Source: Cloacimonetes bacterium UBA5210 (GTDB lineage Bacteria > Cloacimonadota > Cloacimonadia > Cloacimonadales > Cloacimonadaceae). From it: a stretch of 64,000 bases of DNA. The stretch spans positions 30,145 to 94,144 of the forward strand of contig DHVK01000012.1 in NCBI GenBank assembly GCA_002412625.1, read 5' to 3'. This document shows positions 38,796 to 59,168 of the stretch, piece by piece (the stretch's first letter is position 1; each line of letters starts with the position of its first letter). The notes below the pieces were generated by a model. The model made no database searches, was not told where the DNA came from, and saw only the letters and a program-made list of their open reading frames with translations. The translations under genes and the position numbers were made by a program.

Positions 38796-39051
38796 CGAAG
38801 ATCATACCTTCTTTTACTCTTACAGATTGACCAGCAACCAAAGTGCCCTCAGGCTTATTTCCATGACCTCTGCGATATACCACAGTAAATAAATAATCTG
38901 GCCCTGTTGGTACTGGATCAAAAGCTAATTGAAGCACCTCAGGATACTCTAATTCCCGTGATGTAACAATTTTGGGGCGGCTGTTAACAATAATGTTGTA
39001 CTCATGATTGTTAGCTTTTTCTTCTTGTTCAGTTATCTTTTCATTGTCCAT
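38770..39051 (-). CDS. Single beta-grasp ubiquitin-like protein ('multiubiquitin'-type domain)
   Basis: 93 aa. YNIIVNSRPKIVTSRELEYPEVLQLAF...TLVAGQSVRVKEGMIFDVTATNKS matches my recollection of the prokaryotic Multiubiquitin domain pattern (I.VN......V......L.LA....G.L..G..V.V.DGM.F.V..T). It is the first gene of the coupled operon. Confidence 0.65.
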   Translation of the reverse strand: MDNEKITEQEEKANNHEYNIIVNSRPKIVTSRELEYPEVLQLAFDPVPTGPDYLFTVVYRRGHGNKPEGTLVAGQSVRVKEGMIFDVTATNKS

Positions 39052-39327
39052 TTTAAAAGACCTCCATGTCTTTATTTGTTCTAAGCACTATACATACACA
39101 GTATTGATGCTTTCTTGACAGTCAATTAATGTACACTATCTAGTTTCTTAAACACTCTTTTTATTCCTTTCAAGGAATCGAAACTTAAGAATACTATCCA
39201 TAGCATGGTTAAACTACTTTTATACGGTACTTTCTGTCAAGAATAATTTTGAGTATACAAATTCAAAAATCTTCCACACTAGGTCGAATATGCAAGTGTA
39301 CCAAGTGCATTTCGTTAGAACTATGCT

Positions 39328-40974: not shown

Positions 40975-41151
40975 AGCAAAAGCTCCTTCATGTGCTTACC
41001 GATTACCTATGAAGCGTAGTAAATGTATCTCAGTATTCTTGTCAACAATTATATTCACCTCCTTCATAGCTATAATCCACCACTTTCCGGGGAGCAGAAT
41101 CCGGCATAAGTTCCGGACTTGGAGCGGGATTCACCAAGATGGTTCTCTTAC

Positions 41152-43595: not shown

Positions 43596-44252
43596 TTAGT
43601 AGTACAAGGCGATGATCTGGTACTTCCCTTCCTGTGCATCGAAAACCTGCCCTATGCCGATGGTTATGGTGACCTGAGTACCATCCAGTTTGATGTCGGC
43701 TATATACAGGAAGCAATTGCACTGGTTGGTCAGGATGATATGGGGAATGGTATTGTATTCCTTATCAAGCTTGTGAGAGATGAACCTGTCGTCTCTGATG
43801 CTGGCAGGGGTAGCTTGAGTCTGATCTCCGATTCCCTTATCCTGATCTTGAAGCTCGTGCTGCAGCTTTGAAAGAGTGAACACGCTGTTATCAAGATGAT
43901 TAGCAGATACTGCTCCATTGGCTATCTTGCTTCCGGTTACCACTCCATCCAAGATGTGATTGCCGTAGATACAGTCGTTCTGCAGACCCCTGGCATCGAG
44001 TTTACCGATGGTACAGGTCTTGCCTCCGAAGCTGCCATTGGGGTTGCCACGATTGTCCCAGATCTCATAGAAACCGCAATCGGCTTCAGTTTCGATCAGG
44101 CATTCATAATAGCCTGAGTTTTCGGTTTCATTGAGCCTGATCCCACTCTGCCAGTCGGCTCCGGGTCTGAGTAAACGAACATCCACTCCAGACTGAGGCT
44201 TCCTTGCCCCGTCTTCCATTATATAGTAGCTGATTCCATATTTGAACATCAA
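43596..44252 (-). CDS. Phage tail-tip/receptor-binding-type protein (hypothetical)
   Basis: It is the last gene of the tail block. Call is by position only. Confidence 0.4.
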   Translation of the reverse strand: MMFKYGISYYIMEDGARKPQSGVDVRLLRPGADWQSGIRLNETENSGYYECLIETEADCGFYEIWDNRGNPNGSFGGKTCTIGKLDARGLQNDCIYGNHILDGVVTGSKIANGAVSANHLDNSVFTLSKLQHELQDQDKGIGDQTQATPASIRDDRFISHKLDKEYNTIPHIILTNQCNCFLYIADIKLDGTQVTITIGIGQVFDAQEGKYQIIALYY

Positions 44253-44263
44253 TGCTCCTTCTG

Positions 44264-44716
44264 TTAGTTTGATGTTACAGTGTCGTTATCGTCTTCAATG
44301 ACAATGATTCCGAAGTCGATATAGCCAGGTGATCCGATGTATCTGGATTCGAGTGAGAACTTGACCTTCTCAGGATACTCATGCAGATCATCCGGACACT
44401 TGGGGAACTGAGAGACTGTGACCGGGAACTGGCTCTTGACTTCGTTATAGGCGGTGTATTCGAGAAAGAGTCTGCCAGTTGAGGTAATGAAGCTCATCAG
44501 GGTATAATACTCATCAGGATTGAGGGTTGCCTGCAGATCAAAGGAATCCTCCCTGTATTCATCTCTTTGATGCAGGATGGAAGGATCAAAGGCATTCTTC
44601 TTCTCGATGCGGTACTTACGACGGGGAGAGTATTCTACCTGCCCGGTGGTACAGTTAAAGTAGTATGTTCCTTGAGTGCTGAGTCGGATCAGTCTCCAGC
44701 CCTTTATAGCAGCCAT
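44264..44716 (-). CDS. Phage hypothetical tail-associated protein
   Basis: It overlaps the upstream gene by 13 nt within the tail block. No motif. Confidence 0.4.
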   Translation of the reverse strand: MAAIKGWRLIRLSTQGTYYFNCTTGQVEYSPRRKYRIEKKNAFDPSILHQRDEYREDSFDLQATLNPDEYYTLMSFITSTGRLFLEYTAYNEVKSQFPVTVSQFPKCPDDLHEYPEKVKFSLESRYIGSPGYIDFGIIVIEDDNDTVTSN

Positions 44717-46191
44717 GCTTTCACCTTGTATTCATCATTTATGTAGTCTCTCTCCAGTTCGGTAATGGCATAAACCTTATTCTGGATGCGTATCTTGGAC
44801 TGGAGTGAGAGATTGTATTTGGCAAGCTGATCGATAGTCGTTTCTACGCTCCACTTAGAGTCATAGAAGTCGATCAGGTAGTCTTTGATCAGCCCTTGCA
44901 GTTGATTGGTATCGCCACCCAGGACATCGATGGTTTTGATATCGGGTTTCTCTTGGTTGCCACGCTTGACGATAATGGATACCACATCCTCATCGGCTAT
45001 GTTGTTTATGACAGTGGCATAAGCATCCTTGTTCTTGAGGATGATGTTACCATTGGCAGTGGTGAAGATAGTGGCATTATAGAGCATCAGCATCGCTTGC
45101 AGGGCTTTGAGGTTATCGGTCTGCTCCTCTTGTAAGGTCTCATAAGCCTCTCCGGGCTGTAGCTTAGCCGGGAAGAGATTGCCATGAAAGTGAGCTTCGA
45201 TCCAGTGACCAACGTACTGGCTGCTACCATAGCTTCTGCCATCTAACAAGCCCGTACTGCTGAGTCCCGTGAGGAGGGTAGTACTGGAGATGCCATTATC
45301 ACCAAAGAAGCTGAGGAACTCGTTATAGGCATTATCCAGAGAGGGCAGGTCTTCCACCCAGTCGGTCTTTTCATCATATTCGGATACTACCGGACAGATG
45401 CTGTTATAGAACTTGAAGACTCGACCTCGGTATCTTCCCTGATAGCGTGTGGTGGCAGGACTGGGATAGGTAGCCTGGATCACCTTCTTATAGGCAAAGA
45501 CAAAGGTGATCTTGTTTGCTGCCGTATCCACGATGTAACCCCAAAAGGGTCCCGGCCATCCACTGCTGTGATGAGAGTAGGTCCAGCCTCCGGGGGGATT
45601 GGGAAACTGGATCAGGTCATCGAAATCGATGTGAGCGATGGTTAATGAGTCGCCCGAACCGATATTCATGGTTGGAGGGGTGAACTGATTAGTATAAGGA
45701 ATAGAGATTGGGATAGTCTGTTCAATATCCTGCAAGAAGTAACCGAGTATCCAGATTGGCAGATATCCTGCAGTTAGGGAATAGTAGTGAGTGAGATCGG
45801 AATAGACGGACAAGAGCTTGATCTTATCGTAACAGGTGAACTTGAGGATGCCGGAGCTTACATCGAAGGACAACTGGGAAGTATCGATGATGCCTGTAAA
45901 AAACAGAAAATTATCCCGATAGACCCTAACTTCAAAGTGGGATATATACCGCTCATATTCATTGGTTCCGGAGAGGATGTTATCCTGTATCCAGACAGTC
46001 GGGAAACACTCGAAAGTGAGTCGCTTGGGTTCTCTACTATAGTTGGATACCGCTTGCAGCTTATCGGCTGAGACACTTAGAGTGATGATAGCTCTACTAG
46101 TTGCAGTATCCACCAGGCTATGTTTGATCTGGTTATAGTCGGTTGCATCCGTATTGCCTTGCACGAAGTCTATCTTAAATAGATTCGGCAT
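44704..46191 (-). CDS. Phage distal-tail/baseplate-type structural protein (hypothetical)
   Basis: 495 aa, immediately downstream of the tape measure gene with adjacent stop and start. Call is by position. Confidence 0.45.
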   Translation of the reverse strand: MPNLFKIDFVQGNTDATDYNQIKHSLVDTATSRAIITLSVSADKLQAVSNYSREPKRLTFECFPTVWIQDNILSGTNEYERYISHFEVRVYRDNFLFFTGIIDTSQLSFDVSSGILKFTCYDKIKLLSVYSDLTHYYSLTAGYLPIWILGYFLQDIEQTIPISIPYTNQFTPPTMNIGSGDSLTIAHIDFDDLIQFPNPPGGWTYSHHSSGWPGPFWGYIVDTAANKITFVFAYKKVIQATYPSPATTRYQGRYRGRVFKFYNSICPVVSEYDEKTDWVEDLPSLDNAYNEFLSFFGDNGISSTTLLTGLSSTGLLDGRSYGSSQYVGHWIEAHFHGNLFPAKLQPGEAYETLQEEQTDNLKALQAMLMLYNATIFTTANGNIILKNKDAYATVINNIADEDVVSIIVKRGNQEKPDIKTIDVLGGDTNQLQGLIKDYLIDFYDSKWSVETTIDQLAKYNLSLQSKIRIQNKVYAITELERDYINDEYKVKAWLL

Positions 46192-49020
46192 TTATACCTC
46201 ACTCCTGATCATCTTGCCGGTATCAGCTATCTCGGATACCCTAACCGGGTCATTACTCAAGGGATCAACATTTATCTCGAAGTTGGGCTTGTTATCGGCT
46301 ATGCTCTGCCGGAGAGAACTGAACTCCTCCCGCACCACGGAGACGATGGTGTTCATGATCGCAGTCATACTGCCTCCACCGGAAACAGTGCCACCAGAGC
46401 CATAATATGAGCCCAGGTTGGCAGGCATGGGCACTGAAGGGATAGGCAGACCTGCAAATGCAAGCTTCACCTTTTCGATAGGTGCGAAGTTGAGGAAGTC
46501 AAAGAGGTTCCTACCCAGTGCCTTGACTCTGTCCTTGGCAGTGATGTACTCGTTACCTTCAGCTTCAATCAGGATGCCACCCTCACTATGCGCTTTACCG
46601 ACTAATAGTCCTCCGCTGGCTGCCTTGGGTGGCTCAGTGGATTGGATCACTGCGATATTGGCAAGCCCGGCTCCTATTGCTGCCGCAGCAGCGGTGACTG
46701 CCAGTCCGGGTCCGACCACAGGAATACCAACCATAGACTTATAGGCTGCTGTGGCAGAGGCATAGGTGTCTATCATCGCCTGTCCGATAGCCAGGGTCTT
46801 CCACATGGCAAAGCCTTTCTTACCGAAGATCTCTGAAGTCTTGGCAAGGTCACGCATGATCTGCTGGGCACCTTGCAGGTTCCGCATCTCATAGTCGTTC
46901 CGAATCCGAGCCTTGGCAGCTTCGCTTTGGGCTGTGATCTGCTGTTCGGTAAATCCAGCAGCCAGAAGCTTCTCTCTGCGCTTGGCATAGTACTGTTCTA
47001 TGGCTCTCAGCTCCGCATCCCAGGTTCTATCTGATAGTTCCAAGCTCCGCTGAGTGAACTCGAAGCGGGTATCCAGGAGTTCCTGCTGTTGCCGTCTCTC
47101 TTCTTCAAGCACCTTGCGTCTGGCTTCGGTTTCAGCTTCAATCTGAGCAGATCTGGCTTCGCTGGCTTCTGTCTCCACCCTGACCGACTCATCGGCATAG
47201 TGATCCCTGATAGACTGCAGAAGAGTCTCAGATGCTCCTAAGGACTGAGCCTTGGCAAGCTCTGCATCCCGCTGGATTTCGAGTTCCTTCTGTTTTCTAA
47301 GAACTGCATCGTCAATAGATAGCACATCATACTTCTGCTGTAACTGCCTAAGCTGTTCAAGCTGTCTCTGTCTCTCATCTATGAGCCTCTGAGCGTTATC
47401 AGTACCAGATGAGGATGATTCACCAGCATTACCGGAGTCAAAGCTCAGGTCCGGAGCTTCAAGCATCGCCTGTCTATAGGCTGCACCTATCTGCTGCAGA
47501 TCGTACTTGGCCGCTTGCAGTTGTCCCGTCAAAGCACCGAACTGGTTCAAGCGGCTTTCTAACTTGTTCCACTCTCCATCATTCCCGAAGTATAATGCAG
47601 GATTGAAGCCCATGGCATTGCGGTCACTGGTCAGGAAATCCCAATCCACTGAGTTCATCAATTGCTGTTTGCGGGCTCGGACCCTATCTACCTCAGCCTG
47701 TTGGGAGTCGATCTCAATCTGCAGCTCGGCTACCCTCCTGATCTGAGCATTATACCTCTCTCCATAAACTTCAGCTATCTGTTTCTGCACAAGTGCCTCT
47801 GAAGCATTCCGCAAGGCCGTTGCCAGGTTATTGTAAGATGATGTTTCGAGATCGATGTTGCCTATGTACTCAGAGTAGTTCTCATTGAGTGACCGGATGA
47901 TGTTCTTCATCTCGGTCTTATCTGATACCGTAAGTGAACTGGCAGAGCGTAACTCCAGGAGCCTGGAAGCCAGTAAAGAGAACTTCTCGGCTTCCACCGA
48001 GACCTGTTTCTGAGCTTCTTTGATCTCATCGTTCATAGAACGCTGTGCTACAGTTACCGTATCAGTCTTTACCGAGGCTGCTGCCAGCCCTAAGCCCAAG
48101 GCAGACAATGCACCCACAGCAATACCGATAATCCCTGCCACCGGGTTTATAGCTACCTGCAGAGCATGATAGGCAGCGGTCAAGGCAGTGATAGTGGTTG
48201 TAATAGTTCCGATCAAAGGAATGGCTACTACTATACCGGCAACGAAGCCTTGCATGACCGGAGATAAGCTCTGATAGGCATCCATCAGCCAGCGAAGACC
48301 CTGAAGTAACGGATTGATCAGAACTGTCAGCATATCGCCCACTGTCTCCTGGATGTCTCCCCAGGCATTGGCATTCTGCAATCTCAAATCAGCCAGAGCG
48401 ATAGCTGTGCCACCATAGTCCTCTCCTAACTTCTCAACCAGGTAAGACACCCCTTCAGTCTTGAGCCGGGTATCATCAAGCTCGATGCCATAGCGTCCCA
48501 GCATCTCGGTATGACCATTCAATGCCCGACCCATAAGATCAAATGCACTTTCCACGCTCATCCCGGTGGCTTTGTTGGCTTCGGTAAAGTCCAGCAGAAG
48601 TGGCACAAGCTGTTGTATCTCATCCTTATTCAGCTTGAAGGTCTGCGAGAGTTTGGACATCAAAGCCAGCAGTTGATCATCCTCGAAGTTAGTTAATGAC
48701 TGCATGGCAGAGGCAAACTCACCCATCTCAGCCGCAGCTTCTCCAAAGGCTATCTTTGCCAAAGTAACCGCTTGTCTCTGAGCCAGTGATGCATCCAATA
48801 AACCATTCATGGAACGCACCAGACCACCGACTACCTGGATCACTCCATCGACTGCGATCTTCACATCACGAATGGTAGCCAGAGCCTGTTCTGCAGATAT
48901 CTTGACTGCAGCAGGTTTCTCCACCACAGACTGGGTGGACTCCGCTTCCTGCTTGACTTCGGCAAGCTTCACATTGGCATCGTCTGTGACGAGGATGAGT
49001 TTGAAAGTTAGGTCAGGCAT
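46192..49020 (-). CDS. Phage tail tape measure protein
   Basis: 942 aa. Long Ala/Gln/Glu-rich coiled coils, internal hydrophobic Gly/Ala-rich TM-like segments (GFVAGIVVAIPLIG..., VGPGLAVTAAAAAIGAGLA) and a typical position. AGAGG RBS upstream. Confidence 0.88.
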   Translation of the reverse strand: MPDLTFKLILVTDDANVKLAEVKQEAESTQSVVEKPAAVKISAEQALATIRDVKIAVDGVIQVVGGLVRSMNGLLDASLAQRQAVTLAKIAFGEAAAEMGEFASAMQSLTNFEDDQLLALMSKLSQTFKLNKDEIQQLVPLLLDFTEANKATGMSVESAFDLMGRALNGHTEMLGRYGIELDDTRLKTEGVSYLVEKLGEDYGGTAIALADLRLQNANAWGDIQETVGDMLTVLINPLLQGLRWLMDAYQSLSPVMQGFVAGIVVAIPLIGTITTTITALTAAYHALQVAINPVAGIIGIAVGALSALGLGLAAASVKTDTVTVAQRSMNDEIKEAQKQVSVEAEKFSLLASRLLELRSASSLTVSDKTEMKNIIRSLNENYSEYIGNIDLETSSYNNLATALRNASEALVQKQIAEVYGERYNAQIRRVAELQIEIDSQQAEVDRVRARKQQLMNSVDWDFLTSDRNAMGFNPALYFGNDGEWNKLESRLNQFGALTGQLQAAKYDLQQIGAAYRQAMLEAPDLSFDSGNAGESSSSGTDNAQRLIDERQRQLEQLRQLQQKYDVLSIDDAVLRKQKELEIQRDAELAKAQSLGASETLLQSIRDHYADESVRVETEASEARSAQIEAETEARRKVLEEERRQQQELLDTRFEFTQRSLELSDRTWDAELRAIEQYYAKRREKLLAAGFTEQQITAQSEAAKARIRNDYEMRNLQGAQQIMRDLAKTSEIFGKKGFAMWKTLAIGQAMIDTYASATAAYKSMVGIPVVGPGLAVTAAAAAIGAGLANIAVIQSTEPPKAASGGLLVGKAHSEGGILIEAEGNEYITAKDRVKALGRNLFDFLNFAPIEKVKLAFAGLPIPSVPMPANLGSYYGSGGTVSGGGSMTAIMNTIVSVVREEFSSLRQSIADNKPNFEINVDPLSNDPVRVSEIADTGKMIRSEV

Positions 49021-49112
49021 AGTTAAGTTGATACCTCTTGCTAAGTGTTACAAATCATAGAAAATTATTGACATTTCCAGCTCCATCATTTTGCTTGGTA
49101 CTGGAGCATATT

Positions 49113-49937
49113 ATGAAAAAGAAAATGAAAAGAGGATATGTAGCCATGTTAGATGTCCTCGGATTTAAAGAGTATCTGAGCAAAAGACAAAACTTTGATT
49201 TTTTCTCTTTGTGGAAACAGCTTAAAAAAGAGCTCAACGATCAAAAATATTGCATAGAAAAAGAGATTCAAGGATTTGAAGATTATTGGCATCTTGATGT
49301 GTTATGCCTTTCGGACACATTGGTGTTATGCCTTTCCTGCACAGATGAAAACGAGGAAAATAGAACTATTTTATTAGCGCATATAGTGATCATTTTGGAC
49401 TCCTTTATTGACAGGTACTTTAAACAAGGTATTTATTTTAGAGGGGCTATTAGTTATGGCGACTTCATATGCGATACGAAACAAAATATCGCTATGGGAA
49501 ACGCTATAGATGAAGCATCCGAATGGCACGACAGCACAGATTGGATTGGCATCATTCTTGCTCCTAGTGCTAAATATGCTTACGAAAAAATCATACTTGA
49601 AATACCCATTAATCATCCTTGGAATGGTGAGCTACAAAAACTAGTGAATTATGAAGTTCCTTTTAAATTCAACACATCTTACAAAACACGGGCTTTTATT
49701 TGGTTCAACATACCCGATGGTATTTATATGAGAGGGCTGAAGTTACACGGTTTTTACAGGTTACTATCAAAATCCACTTACTCAAAAACTGTAATAGGCA
49801 AGTATGCTAACACAATCAAATTCATCGAAACAATTTTATCTGTTGATCGGGAAGAGTTCCTGTTAGAGGACGCTAAGAGAAGGAATGATAAGACATCAAA
49901 CTTACTTATAATTCCTAATGAGCAACTCGATTTGTAA
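49113..49937 (+). CDS. Class III nucleotidyl-cyclase/GGDEF-fold-like protein with unknown C-terminal domain (AT-rich moron)
   Basis: YVAMLDVLGFKEY (compare VTVLFADIVGFT), LCLSDTLVLCL (compare iGDavma), IYFRGAISYGDFI and MGNAIDEASEWHD (compare RIGIHTGPV / GDAVNLAARLE). GGAG lies 6 nt before the ATG at 49113. GC is ~27% in a spot count, and the gene runs opposite to the flanking phage genes. Confidence 0.55.
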   Translation: MKKKMKRGYVAMLDVLGFKEYLSKRQNFDFFSLWKQLKKELNDQKYCIEKEIQGFEDYWHLDVLCLSDTLVLCLSCTDENEENRTILLAHIVIILDSFIDRYFKQGIYFRGAISYGDFICDTKQNIAMGNAIDEASEWHDSTDWIGIILAPSAKYAYEKIILEIPINHPWNGELQKLVNYEVPFKFNTSYKTRAFIWFNIPDGIYMRGLKLHGFYRLLSKSTYSKTVIGKYANTIKFIETILSVDREEFLLEDAKRRNDKTSNLLIIPNEQLDL

Positions 49938-50681
49938 CTGAAAACTGCCTGAAACAGTGTACTGCGCTTCGACTTCATCAATGGCGAAGCCTTGGTAGAG
50001 TGTGCGGATGTAAGGGTCATTGTTGTAGGATAGCAGGAACTTCCCTTTGATGTTTTTCAGTGCGGATGCCAGCTCTGCATGCTTGGTAAATGCGTCTGCG
50101 TCTTCTCTGTCGTATAGATGCTCCTTGGTGTAATAGGGTGGGTCGAGGTAGAAGAAGGTGTTGGGCGTATCAAAACGGGCAATGATCTTCTCAAAGTCTT
50201 GCTTTTCGATAATCACCTGCTTGAGCCGTTCCGAGGCAGCTTTTACCTTCTCCAGGTTTCGCAGTGGCATGTATTTATAGCCCTGCATGATGCAGAAGTT
50301 CTTGCTGCGTGAGCCGTAGCTGCAGGATAACTGGAAGTAGAAACGGATAGCCCGTTCAAGTTCTGTTTTGGGCTCATGTTGGGTGAACGTGTCGAACATC
50401 TCCCTGGATACCAAGTACTGGTTCAACTCGGTAACAAACGCTTCAGGATGCTGCTTAACGTACTTCCAGAAGTTCACCAGATCACCATTGATGTCGTTAT
50501 AGACTTCAGTGTATCTGCTCTTCTTGGACAACTGCCAGTCTTCCTTGTTGGCTGATTTCCCGAACAGTATCCAGGCAGCACCGCCAAAGACTTCACAGTA
50601 GATGTCGTGCTTGGGGATGAGAGGCAGTATCTTCTTTCTCAGGAGACGCTTGCCACCTACCCATGAGATGATACTATTCAC
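49902..50681 (-). CDS. Dam-family (D12 class) N6-adenine DNA methyltransferase, copy 2
   Basis: WVGGKRLL, EVFGGAAW (motif I) and YLDPPY (motif IV). 4-nt overlap with the upstream paralog. Confidence 0.88.
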   Translation of the reverse strand: MNSIISWVGGKRLLRKKILPLIPKHDIYCEVFGGAAWILFGKSANKEDWQLSKKSRYTEVYNDINGDLVNFWKYVKQHPEAFVTELNQYLVSREMFDTFTQHEPKTELERAIRFYFQLSCSYGSRSKNFCIMQGYKYMPLRNLEKVKAASERLKQVIIEKQDFEKIIARFDTPNTFFYLDPPYYTKEHLYDREDADAFTKHAELASALKNIKGKFLLSYNNDPYIRTLYQGFAIDEVEAQYTVSGSFQLQIELLIRNYK

Positions 50682-51496
50682 GATATCCCCCTGATCTCTT
50701 TGGTGGTTTTAGCTTTGGTCTTGGCTGTATCCTGATCGGTATCCACGAGGTCGAAATTGGCGATGATCACTTCATTGAACTCGGACTTGCCTTCCTTACG
50801 GTTGATACCCTTGGTTCTGGTGACGTGCCTGATATCATAGCCTTTGTATAGCTTCAGTACTTCCGGGTTGTCATCATAGGAGAGGATAAACCTTCCCTTG
50901 ATGTTCTTCAAGATGTCTCTCAGGGTTTCATGGCTGAACTGCTTGGAGTTTTCGTAAGTGTAACCAAGCATGTAAGGCGGATCGCAATAAAAGAAGTTGC
51001 TCTTGGTGTCGTACTTCTCTATCACTTTCTCATAAGAGAGGTTCTCGATGATGACCATGTCCAGTCTTCTGTGCAGTTCCTTGATGCGTTCCAGACGGTT
51101 ATACATACTGGACGTGCCACGCTTCTGAGATGTACCAAAGCTGTCACCTTTGCTTCCGAATGATCTGGTGATGAGGAACATGAACCGGGCAGCTCTCTGT
51201 ATCTCGGTTAAGCCTTCCTGCTTGAGGATATCGCCAAAGAGCTTGCGACTGGCAACCAGAAAGTCCAGTTCTTTGATCAGCTCATCCGGGTGATACTTCA
51301 CTTGTAGGAAGAGATTGACCAGGCGATAGTCGAGATCATTATAAACTTCCAGATCACCCCACTTGTCTTTGAAGAGCAGCATCCAGGCAGCACCACCGAA
51401 GGGTTCAATGTAGCCCTGAATGTCCTTGGGAACGTATTGTGAGATAGTTTTGCGGAGGAGGCGTTTACCTCCGATCCAGCCGATCAGTGCATCCAT
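50678..51496 (-). CDS. Dam-family (D12 class) N6-adenine DNA methyltransferase, copy 1
   Basis: WIGGKRLL, EPFGGAAW (motif I) and YCDPPY (motif IV). It has a Lys/Thr-rich C-terminal tail. Confidence 0.88.
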   Translation of the reverse strand: MDALIGWIGGKRLLRKTISQYVPKDIQGYIEPFGGAAWMLLFKDKWGDLEVYNDLDYRLVNLFLQVKYHPDELIKELDFLVASRKLFGDILKQEGLTEIQRAARFMFLITRSFGSKGDSFGTSQKRGTSSMYNRLERIKELHRRLDMVIIENLSYEKVIEKYDTKSNFFYCDPPYMLGYTYENSKQFSHETLRDILKNIKGRFILSYDDNPEVLKLYKGYDIRHVTRTKGINRKEGKSEFNEVIIANFDLVDTDQDTAKTKAKTTKEIRGIS

Positions 51497-51596
51497 TAGA
51501 TGTCTCCTTTCATACTTGTCAGGCAGAGCCGTAGGTAGAGCTCCGGTAGAGTGAGGTTAGCGAAGTCCTCAGTAGTGAAGCCAAGCTTACGCATTA

Positions 51597-51947
51597 TCAT
51601 TTCGAAGCTCTCGTAGGGGTATTTTCCTGCACCTTGACCGCTAATCCGAAACTCCCGAGCCAAGCGCTGAACCTCTCTTTGCTGGCTCTGATATAGACGA
51701 AAAAAGCAGAGATATGCTCCAAGGCTTCCAAGGCATCCATTGTATCAGGGTCTTGGTTAGAGATGATGCGGATCAGCTCTTTATCGGCTTCTGATTGGGA
51801 GATGATCTCCAGCAGTTCCAGTTCACTGACCTTGGTTACCTTGCCGGAGAGGAAGTCCTCCAGCTTGGCTTTCAGTGTCGTATTGGAGATAGTGAGGCAG
51901 AGTATCTGCCGCAGTTGTTTATAGCTGAGTTGGGGTTCTCGCTTCAT
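51597..51947 (-). CDS. Phage hypothetical protein (tail assembly chaperone by position)
   Basis: A small acidic protein between the tail-protein gene and the tape measure region. The start is set at the ATG at 51947. Confidence 0.35.
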   Translation of the reverse strand: MKREPQLSYKQLRQILCLTISNTTLKAKLEDFLSGKVTKVSELELLEIISQSEADKELIRIISNQDPDTMDALEALEHISAFFVYIRASKERFSAWLGSFGLAVKVQENTPTRASK

Positions 51948-51963
51948 GGTTTGTTTTCCTTTT

Positions 51964-52164
51964 CTATTGTCCAAAGAACATCTTGATGGCAACGCCGATC
52001 AGCATGAAGAACTGGGTAGTGGAGACGCCCAGAAGCAGCTTCATGTTCGTCTCCACTCTCGCCATACGAGTTACCAGTGAGTTATTGCTGTTACCATTGC
52101 CGTAGATCTCCTCATGCACACTGTCGATGCGCTGTTTGATCTCGGGTTTGCATTGGCAATCCAT
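51964..52164 (-). CDS. Small phage protein with C-terminal TM helix
   Basis: 66 aa. The C-terminal hydrophobic segment is LLLGVSTTQFFMLIGVAIKMFF. Confidence 0.4.
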   Translation of the reverse strand: MDCQCKPEIKQRIDSVHEEIYGNGNSNNSLVTRMARVETNMKLLLGVSTTQFFMLIGVAIKMFFGQ

Positions 52165-52187
52165 GTTTAATCCTTGTGTTTCGATGA

Positions 52188-52739
52188 TTATGCTCCGACT
52201 GGAAGATCCTTAAACAGGTAAATCTTACCTGCAGTCACTCCGGAGAACTCAGTGCTGATAACGACCGTGAACAGACCATCAGCTTCACCCGACCAGTCTA
52301 CTGTCCAGCGTAAGCCATTAAAGATCACTGCGCGGTCTTTACCCTTAGATACGATTACGATAGTCGTGTTCTTGCCCATGAATGAGCTACTCTCAAGGAA
52401 GTCTTTCTGCTTCACAGAGAGACCTACAATACTGAGTTCGATGGTTGAAGTGCGCTTGCCGGGAATGCTGTAGTTCCGGGTCTTGAGCTTGGTGATCTTT
52501 GAATCGGTTTTGCCCGGCTTCTCGGCAAGTTCACCTAAGATGTCATAATTGGTACTTAGCTCGAGGTTAAGGGCAGTCTGGTTGATAAAGTGGGCAGCGA
52601 TATCAAGATCAGTGTAAGTGCCTATCCCGAAGTAGATATCATCGGCAATCATCCCCTCAACTAAAGAAACGAAGTTGAGGTCTTTATCAATCATGGTGCC
52701 CGGATAGACCGGGGGTGTTACAGATGGAGTGGGAGGCAT
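52188..52739 (-). CDS. Phage major tail protein candidate
   Basis: 183 aa and beta-rich, located upstream of the chaperone/TMP region. Call is by position only. Confidence 0.4.
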   Translation of the reverse strand: MPPTPSVTPPVYPGTMIDKDLNFVSLVEGMIADDIYFGIGTYTDLDIAAHFINQTALNLELSTNYDILGELAEKPGKTDSKITKLKTRNYSIPGKRTSTIELSIVGLSVKQKDFLESSSFMGKNTTIVIVSKGKDRAVIFNGLRWTVDWSGEADGLFTVVISTEFSGVTAGKIYLFKDLPVGA

Positions 52740-53090
52740 CTAAAATACTCCCTTGATGGCTTTGCCGATACTGAACAGCCACTTACGGTTGTGGAAGACA
52801 TATTCCACCGCTCCCCCGATAGTGCCGAAGATCTTCATGACCAGATTGGTTTGGTTACTGGGGAGGCTCTTGGTAGCCCGCTCGACTGCCAACTGCTTCT
52901 TGGCATAGTCATCGAGGTCCTTGGTGGCAGGATTGATCTTGATATCCTGGATGATATCGAGGATGATCGCCAGAGCGGAGTTGATCTTGGTCTTATCCAA
53001 GGTCTTACCCGTTATCTTGAAAATGATCCAGACGATCAGGGTGGTGATAAGCCCTAAGATGAAGGCTTGATTGGCAATGATGAAGTCCAT
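52740..53090 (-). CDS. Small phage membrane protein
   Basis: N-terminal TM helix FILGLITTLIVWIIF. Adjacent stop and start with the downstream gene. Confidence 0.4.
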   Translation of the reverse strand: MDFIIANQAFILGLITTLIVWIIFKITGKTLDKTKINSALAIILDIIQDIKINPATKDLDDYAKKQLAVERATKSLPSNQTNLVMKIFGTIGGAVEYVFHNRKWLFSIGKAIKGVF

Positions 53091-53117
53091 TGATACTCCT
53101 TATGTTTTGGTTATTGC

Positions 53118-54860
53118 TTAGGTGGTGAGCTTGAACACTTTCACGAAGCCGGAGATGTAGGTGATCCCGGGACGGATACGGATGTACCAGTGGTACTTCC
53201 AGTCTGCGCCATGGTGCTCAACCTTGAGTTCGGCATCGGTACGGTAACCGATGATGATGAACTTGGGCAGACCGCCGATGATGTAGTCATCAGCCATGAG
53301 ACGTGGCTTTACAGGAATCCCCGCAAAGGATACGTTACCGCCTTCGAGCAGCAGTCTGTCTCCGGCTCCGGTCTCACGTTTGGCGAGTTCGGCTCTGATA
53401 CGGATCAGGTCTTTCTGACTGACATAGAACTTGAAGTTCTCCTGCTCTTCTAACATCTCATCAGAGAAAGCTAGGAGTGCAGCTTCGAAGCGTTTCGCCC
53501 AGTCATTGTAGGTGGTCTTGGAGAGGTTGGTGACATCGGTGGCGGTGGTAGCGAGCTTGATCACTCCATCCAGTCCCTTCAGCTTGGCAGTGGCAGATAC
53601 TCTGTCACCTTTGAAGAGTAGCAGACGGATAGCCTTCTCAGTCTTCTTGGCGATATGGTTCTCTACATAGGCTCCGAAGGCATCCTCACCGTACTTGTCC
53701 TTATAGAACTCCACCACATCCCTGCCTAAGGTAAACTCAGCATTGAGTATCCCAGTGGGGACAGAGAGATCGGCAGTGGCTACGGTCTGAGCTGTAAGAG
53801 CACCATCGAGACTATTCTTGAATACCAGGTCATCAATCAGTCCGGCATCGATCTTCTCATCTTTGAGGAGTGGGATAATCGAGATATCGGAAAGGGTATC
53901 ACCGGGCTGGCTGCCAATCACTTCATCGATAAACAGAGATGTGGTATTAGCATTGAGGATGTTCATGGCTTTACCGGAGTCTACATCGGAGATGCCTTTG
54001 TAGATCTCCCGGTGGCTTGCTTTGACCACGATCTTGTTACCATCGATCATGACTTCTTTATCCGCATTCATCTGATTGCCGTCCGGCTCACCTGAAATGC
54101 TCTTGGAGATAGCTCTGGTCATGGTGACTGAGAGGTCTTTCAGGCTCTTCTCGATGCTCTTGATGGCTTCCGAGACGATTACAGTGCCACTGCTCTTCTC
54201 AAGCTCGGTGATCCGCTCAGTGATGGCAGTGATACCTTTCTGCATCTCACTGTTGTTGTTCAGTTCCGCTACCTTACGCAGGCTGCCCAGTTCGTTCTTG
54301 ATCTCGGCTAAGCTGGCTTCGGTGCCACCGTAGTCATCGGCCCGTCCATAGATGGATACCCCATTGAACTCGCCCTTCTCGACCTTCTGCCAGAGTTCAC
54401 TCTGCAGGTTCTCGCACTTGAGGACTTGCACCCAAGAGCCGACTTTAGCATCGGGGAAATGCTCCCGGTCACTGGTCTTGAGTAGGTAGTTCTCCACTAC
54501 GGTAAACTCCGGTACGGGCTGCATATTGTGGTTTACATCGCATTTGCCGACTAAGCCGTGCTTGGCGAAGTGATCACAGGACTTCTGAATCTCTTCCCGG
54601 GTGTAATAGTCCCCCTGGGAGTCATGGATGTTAGGCTCCATCAGAGTGACGTAAAGCCGTCCTTGAGTGCCTGATGTCTCACTCTTGAACTTGGTGGAGT
54701 TGATCTTGTGTTCAAAGCTCCGTCCGGAAGCATTCTTGACCACAAAGCCTTTCTGGTTAGCCGGGTTCATCTCGTCAAAGAGGAGCGAGACCAGCTCGAC
54801 TTCCACATTGCGCAGTTCGCCCTTTTTGACGATCCTGCTCTTAGTTCCGAAGATATTCAT
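53118..54860 (-). CDS. Fusion of XkdF-like prohead protease/scaffold region and HK97-fold major capsid protein
   Basis: The N-terminal ~180 aa match the XkdF-type pattern (DSQGDYYTREEIQKSCDHF...DVNHN...VVENY...GSWVQVLK...ELWQKVEKGEFNGVSIYG). A coiled-coil linker follows, then a ~300-aa C-terminal region of capsid size and position. Confidence 0.6.
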   Translation of the reverse strand: MNIFGTKSRIVKKGELRNVEVELVSLLFDEMNPANQKGFVVKNASGRSFEHKINSTKFKSETSGTQGRLYVTLMEPNIHDSQGDYYTREEIQKSCDHFAKHGLVGKCDVNHNMQPVPEFTVVENYLLKTSDREHFPDAKVGSWVQVLKCENLQSELWQKVEKGEFNGVSIYGRADDYGGTEASLAEIKNELGSLRKVAELNNNSEMQKGITAITERITELEKSSGTVIVSEAIKSIEKSLKDLSVTMTRAISKSISGEPDGNQMNADKEVMIDGNKIVVKASHREIYKGISDVDSGKAMNILNANTTSLFIDEVIGSQPGDTLSDISIIPLLKDEKIDAGLIDDLVFKNSLDGALTAQTVATADLSVPTGILNAEFTLGRDVVEFYKDKYGEDAFGAYVENHIAKKTEKAIRLLLFKGDRVSATAKLKGLDGVIKLATTATDVTNLSKTTYNDWAKRFEAALLAFSDEMLEEQENFKFYVSQKDLIRIRAELAKRETGAGDRLLLEGGNVSFAGIPVKPRLMADDYIIGGLPKFIIIGYRTDAELKVEHHGADWKYHWYIRIRPGITYISGFVKVFKLTT

Positions 54861-55022
54861 GTAATCTCCTTGTTATTGTTTTGAGTTCATGATTTTATGC
54901 TAAGCCATAATGACAAACCACCATGCCTAACTGTGCGACAGTTTTAGTTAAGCATCGATGAGATTTTACTTGTGCTATTTATGGTGGTTAAGAGACTTGT
55001 ACAAAATGAATAGGGAGAATAT

Positions 55023-55979
55023 ATGTCTCTACAACAAAGCTTTAAATGTTTTATGTCCGAAACGCAATCAATAACCCTCAATATAGTGTTGAACAATGTC
55101 AAAGACCGCTATCTTGAGATGATCGACTCAAGTGATGATGTTTATGTGAATACAATGAAAAACAAAATGCTATCCACTCTTAGCAACATGACGGTTCAGT
55201 ATGATGAGTATCATGGCCAGTTTTATCAGGATTATAGCGAGGTAACTTTGTATTTAATACTGAAACATAATGATCTCGATATAACTCCTTTAGCAAGAAA
55301 GAGTTATAGCACGCCTGATTTCAGAATAGTACTCGCTGGGAAAGATTACTTTGTGGAAAATAAGTGCCTAATGCCTATGAACACAGTAATCAACATGGCT
55401 GGACTTCAAGAGCAGATGTTAGAAGTTAACATAGAACTTGAGGAGAAATCGAAAAAGAAGGGCGTACATTTTGGTGCTCCCATCGTTTGCCAACCTCATA
55501 GAGCTAACACTGAAAAATACAGCCATAATGCCAATCTACTAGTAATAGATAACATTATAAGGAAAGTAGTACAGAATTGTAAATCTTCCCAGTTGTCAAA
55601 AAATACTATTCTCATGATAGATATGACCCATTTACCTCTTCATCATCGACCAACTTCATCAGCATTCATATACCTAGGTTCTGACGAGTTAGTTTATACC
55701 GCTCCATTATGGATATCTTGTTTTGGAAAAATCGGAACACCCGTTTTTGGTGTTAAAGAGTTTCCTCTTGGGAATTTTGAGGGATACATGGAAATCGATG
55801 GTATCTTTAACTCAATCAATGAGCTGAATGCCATAGCTTTCAGGTTCGATGATTGGACTGGTGATTCAGTATTTATTGGATTTGATAGATATGGGTTTGA
55901 CATGGACAGACTAATCCAGTCCTTTTGTAAAGAGAGTAATAATGATCGAAACAGACACTGTTTTCCTTCACTGATGTAG
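55023..55979 (+). CDS. PD-(D/E)xK nuclease-like protein with unknown C-terminal domain (AT-rich moron)
   Basis: YSEVTLYLIL...STPDFRIVLAGKDYFVENKC gives E...PD...(x13)...ExK in the expected order. GGGAG RBS precedes the ATG at 55023. The gene is AT-rich and runs opposite to the flanking portal and capsid genes. Confidence 0.55.
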   Translation: MSLQQSFKCFMSETQSITLNIVLNNVKDRYLEMIDSSDDVYVNTMKNKMLSTLSNMTVQYDEYHGQFYQDYSEVTLYLILKHNDLDITPLARKSYSTPDFRIVLAGKDYFVENKCLMPMNTVINMAGLQEQMLEVNIELEEKSKKKGVHFGAPIVCQPHRANTEKYSHNANLLVIDNIIRKVVQNCKSSQLSKNTILMIDMTHLPLHHRPTSSAFIYLGSDELVYTAPLWISCFGKIGTPVFGVKEFPLGNFEGYMEIDGIFNSINELNAIAFRFDDWTGDSVFIGFDRYGFDMDRLIQSFCKESNNDRNRHCFPSLM

Positions 55980-56002
55980 TTAATTATGTTAAAATTCCAA
56001 TG

Positions 56003-57199
56003 TTACTTTACTCCAAAGTTTCGGCTTTGCATAAAGAGTTGATCATCCGCAGATTGGAGCTTCTCGGTTAGATTGCCGAAGTTGAAGTCGTCCGGAGTGA
56101 GGTTCCACCCGAACTCAAAGTTGAACTCTATTGCCAGGGTAAGTGCGAGGCGATTCTGCAGTGGCTTGACTACGAAGTGGTAGAACATCAGCATATCGCT
56201 CTTGTTATCGCCACCCAGCTGCCCTGGGATCAGCTGTGAGACGATCCTTGCCGGAACCCGGTGATAAGCGAAGATACCTTCCCGCAAGTCTTTCTTAAGA
56301 GTGATGAAGCCACCTTCCCTGTCCTGCTGACGCAGTGGCTCGAGGCGTATCTTCACATCCCGGCTCTCGCTTTCGATTAGTACAGTAGAGTGGCTCTTGG
56401 CATTGCCTTTGACCTCGGTGAGTGCCTTTTCGATCTCGGTATAGGCATCGGTGAGGACTTCATTGCCCTGCTCGTCTGTAACGGTTCCGTCTCTGAGCGT
56501 GCCACCTTCCACAATCACGAAGTAATCGATCATCAGCCCGTTCTTGAAGTTGTTGTAGTCGAAGGTCTTGATCTCGGAGAGTATCTCGACATTAATGGCT
56601 ATCGGCAGGCAGGCCAAGCCCCAGGCATTGCTCTTATGGGTGCTCTTCTTGATGTGGATGATATCGGCATAGGCGAAGTCCTTCTTCTGGTTGTTCTTCA
56701 CTTGGATATAGTTAGGTCGAAAGAAGCCGAACTCGTCATAGTTCTCTACGATCTGCACTTCACTGGGCAGCATACGTTCGAGTCCCATCCACTGTCCCTG
56801 AGCGTTACGCATCTTGATCAGGAAGCCATTCCCACAGGTGAGATAGAACTTGATCATCTCAGCCAGGATAGTGGTCTGGTCTTCACAGGCAGGAAACTCG
56901 GCAGCTTCCATCCAGGACTTTACCTGGCTGTTCTTGCAGTCGAACTCCATGACAGTTGCCATAGACAAGGCATCCACACAACCGGAGTGGTACTCATCAG
57001 TATCCAGGAGGTTGAGCAGGTTACTCATCGAGTAGGGCTGAGAGACCACTTTCTTAGTCTCGGCTGCTTTGGAGATCAGTTGCTTACCGACCCGGCTGCA
57101 CTTGGATAAGTCAATCGGCTCAGGCTTGTATTTGGTCTCCAGGAGTTCAGTAGCAGAACTGATCGCCAGGTTATATCCACCCAGTCGCATCACTCTCAT
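56003..57199 (-). CDS. Phage portal protein candidate
   Basis: 398 aa. Its size, its position upstream of the protease/capsid gene and its C-terminal pattern (AYHRVPARIVSQL...MLMFYHFVVKPLQNRL) resemble HK97-family portals. Confidence 0.6.
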   Translation of the reverse strand: MRVMRLGGYNLAISSATELLETKYKPEPIDLSKCSRVGKQLISKAAETKKVVSQPYSMSNLLNLLDTDEYHSGCVDALSMATVMEFDCKNSQVKSWMEAAEFPACEDQTTILAEMIKFYLTCGNGFLIKMRNAQGQWMGLERMLPSEVQIVENYDEFGFFRPNYIQVKNNQKKDFAYADIIHIKKSTHKSNAWGLACLPIAINVEILSEIKTFDYNNFKNGLMIDYFVIVEGGTLRDGTVTDEQGNEVLTDAYTEIEKALTEVKGNAKSHSTVLIESESRDVKIRLEPLRQQDREGGFITLKKDLREGIFAYHRVPARIVSQLIPGQLGGDNKSDMLMFYHFVVKPLQNRLALTLAIEFNFEFGWNLTPDDFNFGNLTEKLQSADDQLFMQSRNFGVK

Positions 57200-57597
57200 G
57201 CCGATGCTCCTGTTCCTGCCTTGAGCAGGTCGATCTTGGCGATCCTGACCAGTCTGGTACCGTCGATGCGGCTGGTGTAGTATTCCACACTGGGCAAGTC
57301 CCGGTTCATCAGCTTGAGATATAAAGAGCGGAACTTCTCTTTGAGTTGGTAAAGGTCGTTATCTGGATCATCCACGTTCTGAGCATTGACAATCAGAAAC
57401 ACTGTCCAAGCCAAATCAGTACTAACATACTGTCTTGAAGTGCCATTCTTGCCTGTCTCTGAGTCCAGAATCACAATAGCACAGGGCAACTGCTTGGGGA
57501 TAGCATCCTTGTTGAACTGGATGGTCGGGATATCGGAATACTTCAATGCATCGACTATCCGATTCCGGTCTGCGATAAACTTCTCATGAGCGGTCAT
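57196..57597 (-). CDS. Phage head-tail connector/tail-completion-size protein
   Basis: ATGA overlap with the upstream gene when the start is set at 57597. 4-nt overlap with the portal gene. No motif. Confidence 0.4.
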   Translation of the reverse strand: MTAHEKFIADRNRIVDALKYSDIPTIQFNKDAIPKQLPCAIVILDSETGKNGTSRQYVSTDLAWTVFLIVNAQNVDDPDNDLYQLKEKFRSLYLKLMNRDLPSVEYYTSRIDGTRLVRIAKIDLLKAGTGASA

Positions 57598-58082
57598 AGA
57601 CTTACCTCGATAGAACTCAATTGTTGGTATATCCACTGCTCCCGGTTAGCAATAACCTCAGCGAATACATTACGGGCAGCGATGCCTTCCCGCTTGATCT
57701 TGCCCCTAATGAGATAAGCGATCTCAGCTACGGTCAGCAGCTTTCCTGTCTCTTTATCAGTCCAAGACAGGTGCTTGCGTTCGACCCAGGCGATCAGTGG
57801 AGCGATCGGAGTCCAGGAAGGCACTTTGCCACCCAATACAAAAGGCTCGTGTTTGACGTTGGAGCCTACTCTGAGGATCATGGCATCAGGACTGGTCTCA
57901 ACCAGATAACCGGTATTGCCATAAAAGTCACCCTTATCGTAGATCTGCTGTGCCAGTATCTCCTTTCGGGACTCAGCATCGATCACAGAACCGATCAAAT
58001 GCAGACGGCTCTCCAGAGCAGTATAGATAGCCAAGTAGATCTCCCGCATCAGCTCATCCGGTGTGGTATAGCTATCAGGCAT
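57594..58082 (-). CDS. Phage hypothetical (connector-size) protein
   Basis: It lies in the coupled gene block. No motif. Confidence 0.4.
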   Translation of the reverse strand: MPDSYTTPDELMREIYLAIYTALESRLHLIGSVIDAESRKEILAQQIYDKGDFYGNTGYLVETSPDAMILRVGSNVKHEPFVLGGKVPSWTPIAPLIAWVERKHLSWTDKETGKLLTVAEIAYLIRGKIKREGIAARNVFAEVIANREQWIYQQLSSIEVSL

Positions 58083-58540
58083 CAGATCACTCCCACCCGG
58101 ATCACTCTTGGAGGTCGGGGTTTCAACTCATCCAACCGAAGTAAACCAGTGGAATTGAGATAGTCTCGAAGTACGGTCAGTGCTCTCAGTTCAAGGTTAG
58201 CTTTGAATGCGTCAATTTCGCTCCCTGTGAGCAGTTCGGTAGCAGACTGGTCTAATCCTACGGTCTTCACTATTCCCTCGCCCAGGGTCTTCAAATTGAG
58301 AAACTCACAAGTACTGTGCAGCATCAGGAAACAGAACCCAAAACGAAAAGAGATCAGAAATGGCTCTTCCTCCGGCATATCATCCTGTATAGCACGATTG
58401 TAATATTCCGGTAAGACGATGGTTCTGATAGTCTCCATTACGATAGCCTTATGCTCTTTGAATATGCCGTTATCACCCATCTCCTTAGGAAGATTGAGTA
58501 TATCGAGCATGGCATCTATCTCGACCGGGATTGGTATCAC
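58082..58540 (-). CDS. Phage hypothetical (connector-size) protein
   Basis: It overlaps the neighbours by 1-4 nt. No motif. Confidence 0.4.
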   Translation of the reverse strand: MIPIPVEIDAMLDILNLPKEMGDNGIFKEHKAIVMETIRTIVLPEYYNRAIQDDMPEEEPFLISFRFGFCFLMLHSTCEFLNLKTLGEGIVKTVGLDQSATELLTGSEIDAFKANLELRALTVLRDYLNSTGLLRLDELKPRPPRVIRVGVI

Positions 58541-58962
58541 TTGCCTTTTCTCATCAGTTCGGGTAACTCAATCGCCCTGCGACCAACCTGCTTTGCCCAT
58601 TTGGAGGCAAGCATGTTATTAGCAGCCCGTTCCCAGTCACCTGCTTCTATGAACGCAAGGGTGTTTTTGAAGCTAAGTAGTCCTTTTATGCCCATGTTAA
58701 AGCACATATTCAGCAGTACCGATTTACGTACCTCATCAATCTGAAGATAGATTTTTGGAATCTCAGCCAGAATTTGTCTCTCACACTGCAGAATATCGCC
58801 TTCTAAGAGCAAATAAGCTTCCTTCTGAGTGATACCGCAATCATCCAGATTGCGACCAACCCCGATGGTTAATTTACCAGCTGTGCAGCGGTAAGGCTTC
58901 AGCCTCAGACCTTCATGTCTCAGCAGTTGTTCTTTCATGCGTTCCAGTAAGTTAGCTTCCAT
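58537..58962 (-). CDS. Phage lysozyme (T4/GH24-type muramidase)
   Basis: LLRHEGLRLKPYRCTAGKLTIGVGRNL with the catalytic-Glu context E-G, typical of GH24 lysozymes. AAGGAG RBS precedes the ATG at 58962, so the track start at 59091 is an extension. Confidence 0.85.
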   Translation of the reverse strand: MEANLLERMKEQLLRHEGLRLKPYRCTAGKLTIGVGRNLDDCGITQKEAYLLLEGDILQCERQILAEIPKIYLQIDEVRKSVLLNMCFNMGIKGLLSFKNTLAFIEAGDWERAANNMLASKWAKQVGRRAIELPELMRKGK

Positions 58963-59168
58963 TGTGTCTCCTTGCGATGTCAGTGGATACTCTATCCAGT
59001 GCAAGGAAGCCACTACCCTGTATAAACACAAATATGGATGCATAAGGTTGCGACAGATTTTAGTATTGACAGAATCTGACCTTTGAAGCATTAGTAATTA
59101 CCATGAAGAAACATTTACAGGATTTGTCATGGTCGGTGAGAAACACATTGTGATGGAGACGAGTAGTT

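Follow-up and report, generated by a model that had tools for sequence, protein, structure and literature searches.

The stretch of DNA analysed here, referred to as the window, comprises 64,000 nucleotides of contig DHVK01000012.1 from Cloacimonetes bacterium UBA5210 (assembly GCA_002412625.1, positions 30,145 to 94,144) and contains a phage-like element of about 15 kb. Within this element, an open reading frame (ORF) encoding 318 amino acids (aa) stands between the portal gene and the gene for a protease-capsid fusion. The element also carries genes for a lysozyme, three connector-size genes, tail genes, two Dam-class methylase genes, a tape-measure gene and distal tail genes. The ORF begins with an ATG that follows the Shine-Dalgarno sequence GGGAG at a spacing of 5 nt, and we preferred this start to a 308-aa database call because alignments with homologues begin at residue 1. 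It runs convergently to the portal gene (23 bp from stop to stop) and divergently from the capsid gene (162 bp from start to start), and its GC content of 0.366 compares with 0.509 and 0.515 in these two neighbours. An initial annotation, made by a model from the letters alone, had described an AT-rich accessory gene, or moron, on the opposite strand, divergent from the capsid gene and equipped with its own ribosome-binding site, and had proposed that it encodes a PD-(D/E)xK nuclease. The composition, orientation and ribosome-binding site in that description were all recovered.

A portal-anchored survey covered 45 genome loci and 80 IMG/VR loci (relatives occur in 174 IMG/VR stretches), of which 105 hold both border genes. 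The portal and capsid genes lie no more than 120 bp apart in 95 of these 105 sister loci (median 45 bp), consistent with the annotated view of an ORF that splits normally contiguous genes, and a homologue of the ORF was found in none of the 105. The ORF is an accessory, sporadic gene, as the term moron had implied. Contexts anchored on homologues had suggested a conserved syntenic core gene, a status that the portal-anchored survey led us to reject. The homologue-bearing loci other than the window (L001-L007 and L148) were found via the homologues themselves and, given 0 of 105 in the portal-anchored sample, the apparent core-gene status reflects ascertainment bias. Among 232 species genomes of the phylum, only that of the window gave a strong match, with two further marginal matches (L143 and L144); the window's genome (2.58 Mb) has a single copy of the ORF.

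The ends of the insertion were placed by blastn against the empty site of locus L058, whose portal and capsid genes are 98 % and 96 % identical to those of the window. Homology is lost at position 54871 and regained at 56019, delimiting a cassette of ~1147 bp where the empty site has ~86 bp, and the capsid-side boundary at 54871 is common to the ORF-bearing sisters L001, L003 and L005. On the right, the cassette reaches 16 bp into the portal gene and replaces its last ~5 codons at the 3′ end, and portal C-termini therefore differ between filled and empty elements. L058 and L013, the closest relatives by their flanks (portal 98 %), both lack the ORF. The same genome has the element a second time, on a different contig (G000:C24, L147), in a copy collinear with that of the window at 75-88 % nucleotide identity; the slot of this copy is also empty, with a portal-capsid gap of 78 bp and collinearity that extends to 54871 and resumes at 56028. 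The capsid fusion is 85-96 % identical in close sister elements. ORF-bearing sisters share 87-95 % identity with the window in the portal and 86-90 % in the capsid, versus 43-44 % in the ORF, and the cassette DNA could not be aligned. All three ORF-bearing lineages show the same compositional step, with a GC content of 0.35-0.37 in the ORF against 0.49-0.54 in its surroundings. Upstream of the start, these sisters carry AGGGAGA or AGGAGAG at an equal distance and a TTGACA or TTGACG hexamer. Neither convincing boundary repeats nor an Rfam family were found in the cassette.

Other inserts, of 150-933 bp, occupy the slot in 10 of the 105 loci. The five distinct ones among these that have a clear ORF show a GC content of 0.33-0.42 versus ~0.50 and genes opposite to the portal strand, and the proteins that they encode are 92, 150, 164 and 264 aa long. 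Six slot contents were thus seen: empty, the present ORF, and the 92-, 150-, 164- and 264-aa ORFs. The 264-aa protein is AbiGi, a known abortive-infection family (PF10899 at 34 bits, cut-off 22.4, and also the PADLOC AbiGi model). Its gene, at L020:7182-8136 on a contig of Cloacimonetes UBA5614, is alone in the slot, with no AbiGii partner in the insert. L086 and L091 encode the 92-aa protein, and inserts of equal size (~365 bp) are present in L103, L119 and L121; the 531-bp insert of L111 encodes the 150-aa protein and the 576-bp insert of L017 the 164-aa protein. None of these three opposite-strand proteins had a Pfam or PADLOC match; all three are possible additional candidates for defence or anti-defence functions. 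On the basis of the fixed boundary and the varied, AT-rich, opposite-strand inserts, the portal-capsid slot is a genuine exchange hotspot, in which the present ORF is one of the rarer cargos. The features of the locus are listed in Table 1.

Table 1. Positions of the ORF, its parts and other features in the window
Feature	Positions	Strand	Basis or remark
Inserted cassette, ~1147 bp	54872..56018	.	blastn break against empty-site L058
Cassette 5′ untranslated and presumed promoter region	54872..55022	+	Inferred; Shine-Dalgarno GGGAG at 55013-55017
ORF, 318 aa, putative unannotated PD-(D/E)xK-type nuclease family	55023..55979	+	Homologues, conserved motif, AlphaFold2 model
Residues 1-60, N-terminal three-helix region, lowest conservation of the protein	55023..55202	+	AlphaFold2; mean information 1.3 bits
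Residues 61-200, predicted catalytic core	55203..55622	+	Conservation, AlphaFold2 order, SfsA and Foldseek core matches
Codon of E73	55239..55241	+	
Codons of P98-D99	55314..55319	+	
Codon of E112	55356..55358	+	
Codon of K114	55362..55364	+	
Residues 201-318 and stop codon, alpha/beta C-terminal region	55623..55979	+	Conservation and AlphaFold2
XkdF-type protease-capsid fusion, 580 aa	53118..54860	-	Left slot border; PF14550 (Peptidase_S78_2), E = 7.6e-35
Portal protein	56003..57199	-	Right slot border; Phage_portal PF04860, E = 3.5e-13
Phage-like element, ~15 kb	43995..59074		
Second variable slot	49021..49908		Between dam259 and the tape-measure gene
Cyclase-like moron, 299 aa	49038..49937	+	AT-rich
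Two Dam-class (D12-class) methylase genes	49902..51496		3.5 kb from the ORF
Left flank, defence-like	37617..42498		
DUF6791-ThiF	37617..38795		
N6_N4 methylase-Mrr_cat fusion	39328..40974		
AAA_14/DUF4143 ATPase	41152..42498		

The ORF contains the motif strings EVTLYLIL (E73), TPDFRIV (P98, D99) and YFVENKC (E112, K114), in which D99 and E112 are 13 residues apart (12 aa lie between them). A word-indexed search returned 7 relatives at 41-57 % identity, and HMMER, run exhaustively over 1.8 billion representatives, yielded 180 homologues at E <= 1e-3, counted as representatives after clustering at 50 % identity. Most are 310-350 aa long and match end to end, and they range over at least Cloacimonadota, Alphaproteobacteria and Gammaproteobacteria. 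The fusions seen among members, one to GNAT, one to a metallo-beta-lactamase and an unannotated helical N-extension of ~110 aa, are uninformative. Among 125 members, column conservation is 98 % for E73, 97 % for P98, 98 % for D99, 96 % for E112 (the remainder being D) and 99 % for K114, ranking these among the top columns of the whole protein. The E, PD, E-x-K signature read by the initial annotation is present and conserved, and the lack of conservation among homologues that it had named as counter-evidence did not materialise. In a deep alignment (A2) of 116 sequences, in which mean column identity is 22 % and relatives are 16-57 % identical, D99 and G260 are the sole invariant columns and E73, P98, E112 and K114 each reach at least 90 %. 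Strong purifying selection thus acts on E73, D99, E112 and K114 in a family that spans several phyla, and the D...(D/E)-x-K order of catalytic residues by which the superfamily is recognised is present.

Conservation extends well beyond the motif. The best-conserved segment of the protein spans residues 171-200 and contains a second conserved block (K181, N185, K187 and Q190), and the C-terminal region has conserved positions at S/G226-G227, L229, W230, F234, G235 and G260. Searches of Pfam, NCBIfam, PHROGs and PADLOC with the ORF recognised no family, the sole PADLOC match being DrmD at E = 0.016 and 12.5 bits, and the 116 aligned members gave only chance singletons against Pfam, PADLOC and PHROGs. 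A 330-aa ORF in a genome of the same order (G175, L143:1321-2313) had a core-only profile match (hhalign probability 76 %) with E-x-F rather than E-x-K. It was rejected as a family member on both counts and may be a degenerate or very distant relative.

An AlphaFold2 model was built from A2, a deep alignment being required (with a shallow alignment of 8 sequences, the predicted local distance difference test score, pLDDT, fell below 50 in the C-terminal half). The model is one compact unit with a pLDDT of 93.7 and a predicted template-modelling score (pTM) of 0.92. Three N-terminal helices (residues 3-15, 28-36 and 40-54) precede a core composed of helix 62-82 (with E73), strand 86-89, strand 100-104 (directly after P98-D99), strand 107-115 (with E112 and K114), helix 121-143, helix 171-185 and strand 195-200. 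As predicted, the core has the canonical alpha-beta-beta-beta-alpha-beta order of PD-(D/E)xK enzymes. A PDB sequence search with a profile of the 116 sequences gave SfsA as its best, sub-threshold match (E = 0.07), aligned column for column (E to E, PD to LD and ExK to ExK), and a VRR-NUC ‘Nuclease’ was also aligned on the motif among the sub-threshold matches; the 8-sequence profile found nothing. About 40 of the top 50 Foldseek matches in the PDB are PD-(D/E)xK proteins (RecU, PrfA, Hjc, I-Ssp6803I, FokI, HindIII, Bax1 and SfsA; E >= 0.15), and so are many of those in BFVD, among them VRR-NUC proteins, resolvases and restriction enzymes (E >= 0.03, core probability up to 0.99). These fold matches cover 43-55 core residues at a root-mean-square deviation (rmsd) of 1.7-3 Å with E-values of 0.03-1. 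Whole-chain template-modelling (TM) scores are at most 0.22 against solved or viral predicted structures, so that no structural relative is known for the parts that surround the core. The nuclease assignment of the initial annotation is thus upheld by the motif and the predicted core, with a fold similarity that is confined to the core and has weak E-values.

The same annotation had set apart a C-terminal domain of ~190 aa and suggested that it senses a ligand in the manner of Cap4, NucC or Card1, through a SAVED- or CARF-like fold. Residues 171-200 are the best-conserved segment and the model is a single compact body, so the part that follows residue 125 does not stand apart as an added domain. 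Residues 201-318 have no family, PDB or BFVD match, and Pfam, PADLOC, PDB sequence and Foldseek searches gave no sensor fold or family of the CARF, SAVED or any other kind. The fold search with the full-length model matched the nuclease core and no sensor, the only sensor-type match being an insignificant one to Cdn1 (9u49, probability 0.16, rmsd 14 Å). Pfam, PDB and Foldseek searches also gave no modified-base reader domain (SRA, YTH/EVE, winged-helix Mrr-N and similar), and by hhalign the family matched neither of two Mrr_cat proteins. A new kind of modified-base reader could still reside in the family-specific C-terminal region.

Distant members (21-28 % identity) were compared in eleven distinct neighbourhoods, and they lie mostly in defence or mobile-element surroundings. 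Restriction-modification (R-M) genes occur in several, as a type I system with DUF4062 (L010) and as an MmeI-type system with Mrr and tyrosine recombinases (L150, L152). Another combines E1, E2 and multi-ubiquitin genes with UvrD helicases (L009), and a further one holds HipA, Fic and an nSTAND ATPase with an S8 protease (L011). AbiEi/AbiEii genes lie directly upstream of the member in L138, HipA and AbiEi accompany it in L140, and L139 has a cyclic-oligonucleotide-based anti-phage signalling system (CBASS; CD-NTase and Cap15) together with AbiJ and HEPN genes. Mobile settings comprise a RepC plasmid (L151), a Tn3 cargo region with SbcCD-like and AAA_21 ATPases (L153), an integrative conjugative element with ArdC and ParB in which AddAB-like helicase-nucleases stand beside the member (L008), and a plasmid of Acinetobacter rich in insertion sequences, where the gene is annotated ‘hypothetical protein’ (L149). 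The distant members are always stand-alone genes and have a GC content 2-6 points below that of their own loci. No conserved partner gene was found: abutting upstream and downstream genes are mutually unrelated, including the upstream genes of 181-224 aa in three loci. By tblastn, 50,697 phage genomes gave no family hit and the ORF itself had no hit among isolated phages and plasmids; a proteobacterial member had one match, the ‘hypothetical protein’ of the Acinetobacter plasmid.

Overall, we favour, at a probability of about 0.6, the reading that the ORF is horizontally acquired hotspot cargo encoding a putative metal-dependent PD-(D/E)xK nuclease of an undescribed single-gene family with a role in defence. 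The anti-phage or anti-mobile-element role is held with that same confidence. A defence or exclusion role had been put forward in the initial annotation and is the best-supported reading here, with AbiGi in the slot of a sister and relatives mostly in defence or mobile-element neighbourhoods. The nuclease would be expressed from its own signals, opposite to the late structural operon, during quiescence of the element. Phages or other mobile elements that enter the cell would then have their DNA cut, which would protect the host and thereby the resident element, and the family-specific N- and C-terminal parts that appear to wrap the core might provide the discrimination between self and foreign DNA. 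Within a defensive role, we assign about half of the weight to a direct, restriction-like attack on some feature of foreign DNA (modified bases, DNA ends or replication structures, in a type IV-like manner) and about a quarter to a latent nuclease that is switched on by infection, that is, to abortive infection, leaving the remaining weight unassigned. Direct action is favoured roughly 2:1, a judgement that stems from the lack of a sensor domain, partner or antitoxin and from the single compact enzyme. A bolder proposal, to which we give a little less than even odds, combines a new and widespread single-gene anti-phage family that has an unprecedented fold around its core and a new mode of foreign-DNA recognition with a portal-capsid junction that acts, in a terminase-less multi-copy element, as a dedicated exchange slot for immunity genes.

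Several observations weigh against the favoured reading. The defence inference is one of guilt by association, drawn from eleven neighbourhoods that were counted without a background rate; one of them (L141) has no obvious defence genes. None of the 116 members matched any of the 5027 models of PADLOC-DB v2.0.0 (2023) at E <= 1e-3. The matches to known nucleases are all core-only, and none of them reaches significance on its own (best E 0.03-0.15). Consensus scans of the + strand of the cassette (sigma-70 patterns in the case of promoters) found neither a promoter nor a terminator, and such scans may not suit the phylum; with no predicted terminator and convergent stops at such short range, transcripts of the ORF could read antisense into the portal gene. 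A solitary nuclease would also have to spare host DNA without a methylase. Finally, no integrase, replication genes or terminase were found in the element, and Terminase_6N and TerL_ATPase had no match anywhere in the 92 %-complete genome. The element may accordingly be a domesticated particle, akin to a gene transfer agent or otherwise, rather than a prophage, and the logic of lysogen protection is weakened to that extent. A domesticated carrier would alter who benefits from the cargo, not the nature of the cargo. Expression from a prophage, as initially envisaged, is therefore doubtful in its carrier, and the defensive part of that proposal stands.

The alternative that survives best, itself unlikely, is a nuclease with a non-defensive function, such as DNA repair, recombination, the breakdown of host DNA when particles are made, or competition between the resident element and its second copy. 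The top core fold matches are the Holliday-junction resolvases RecU and Hjc, one member lies beside AddAB-like helicase-nucleases (L008), and in an element without a recognisable terminase some unusual DNA processing is conceivable. The resolvase likeness is confined, however, to the ~45-residue universal core, and defence and toxin-antitoxin genes, rather than repair operons, predominate in the neighbourhoods. The ORF is also oriented against the structural operon. Since neither the 105 sisters nor the paralogous element of this genome has the ORF, it is not needed for the core biology of the element, and a core function was excluded because the gene is missing from all of the sisters surveyed.

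A free-standing homing endonuclease would cut the empty portal-capsid junction and be copied in by repair, and this we consider quite improbable. Such an enzyme would explain why a nuclease gene is sporadic at one intergenic site among close elements, the core fold matches include a homing enzyme of PD-(D/E)xK type, I-Ssp6803I, and the genome itself would offer a natural target in its ORF-less second copy of the element. Yet that sister copy is still empty, as are the closest flank relatives despite their nearly identical portal genes. Recent homing should leave near-identical genes and co-converted flanks, whereas same-slot copies are 43-44 % identical, with unalignable DNA, between flanks that are 81-95 % identical. 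Unrelated cargo without a nuclease family match, AbiGi included, occupies the same slot, and the distant members examined all lie in chromosomal islands, plasmids and transposons, with none in the phage genomes searched. We conclude that the ORF is probably not a homing endonuclease.

Less probable still is a solitary type II restriction endonuclease whose target sites are methylated in trans by the two Dam-class methyltransferases of the element. Both methylase genes belong to the element, 3.5 kb from the ORF; a type II enzyme consists of one PD-(D/E)xK protein of comparable size whose fold is idiosyncratic, and HindIII is among the weak fold matches. These methylases are core genes of the element, however, present in 63 loci that include ORF-less ones, and are not paired with the nuclease; they have late-operon orientation and would need to protect the whole chromosome during quiescence. 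Methylases occur in only two of the distant neighbourhoods, as parts of complete type I or MmeI-type systems. A linked cognate methyltransferase, as expected of a type II R-M system, was not found, in line with the annotated view that no methylase is paired with the ORF and that it does not belong to an ordinary type II system. The least likely rival is a split signalling system similar to CBASS, Pycsar or type III CRISPR with the ORF as its effector, in which the product of the cyclase-like moron in the second slot activates the nuclease through its C-terminal region: both genes are AT-rich, on the + strand and inserted in one element, but homologues of the cyclase-like protein (34-43 % identity) occur in six IMG/VR sisters (L067, L083, L106, L111, L119 and L121) of which none has the nuclease, no conserved cyclase lies near distant members (the sole CD-NTase, in L139, has its own Cap15 effector), and the searches for sensor folds and families, SAVED and CARF included, gave none. 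The two genes co-occur only in the window, and the second slot, which gives gaps of 0-900 bp in sisters, holds unrelated ORFs of 104 and 126 aa without family match in the nuclease-bearing L001/L002 and L005; the genes therefore assort independently, which largely refutes the pairing. On the reading favoured here, the ORF is neither an R-M enzyme nor a cyclase-paired effector.

Compared with the PD-(D/E)xK superfamily at large (SfsA, VRR-NUC, Hjc/RecU and I-Ssp6803I), the ORF shares the ordered signature and the predicted core, at ~2-3 Å over ~45 residues, and differs in its family-specific three-helix N-terminus and ~120-residue C-terminal alpha/beta region. Single-gene nuclease defences and type IV restriction enzymes include Mrr and Shedu SduA, and PADLOC models should cover Shedu among other systems. 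Like Mrr and SduA, members of the ORF family are stand-alone PD-(D/E)xK genes without a methylase in defence islands and mobile elements; unlike them, the ORF has no Mrr_cat match, PADLOC match or recognisable reader or sensor domain. Cap4, NucC and Card1/Cdn1 similarly join a nuclease core to an additional region of similar size, and differ from the ORF in that it has no SAVED or CARF domain and no conserved cyclase or CRISPR partner. By its sequence, the ORF appears to represent a new family in a known superfamily that is used in a known ecological role.

The nearest precedent for the slot comes from P2-like prophages, in which a variable anti-phage hotspot adjoins the portal gene, as with old/tin between gpA and gpQ, and from P4 satellites, which have hotspots likewise (Rousset et al. 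2022, PMC9122126). Common to both settings are a fixed slot by the portal gene, borders formed by core genes, and variable content that includes a known abortive-infection family, here AbiGi. In contrast to the P2 and P4 hotspots, the present slot lies inside the head-morphogenesis operon, between portal and protease-capsid genes, in a ~15-kb terminase-less and integrase-less carrier from an uncultured Cloacimonadota host; ~90 % of slots are empty. The hotspot logic of P2 and P4 in E. coli also operates, on this view, within a head-gene operon in elements of an uncultured anaerobic-digester phylum, and the 92-, 150- and 164-aa cargos and the cyclase-like gene of the second slot therefore become candidates. 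If the ORF is a defence gene, a compact (~320-aa) partner-less nuclease family that is missing from Pfam, NCBIfam, PHROGs and PADLOC would join the immune repertoire, and its methylase-free discrimination of self and foreign DNA could reveal a new mode of DNA recognition or a useful reagent enzyme. If it is ordinary, the ORF would simply be another orphan restriction-like nuclease.

A literature search yielded no paper that deals with these elements or with accession WP_004708988. On its left, the element is flanked by defence-like genes (Table 1), and the right flank contains a cassette of Dcm, a 360-aa protein and Vsr together with a kinase-like gene. Four copies of the element are present on the Cloacimonadales contig CAXXTU010000002.1. 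Contigs L015, L021, L027/L028 and L039, which have 89-98 % identical portal genes, are binned in metagenome-assembled genomes of Spirochaetales, Gammaproteobacteria, Omnitrophota and Staphylococcaceae, and are most likely mis-binned contigs of Cloacimonadota elements rather than signs of cross-phylum spread.

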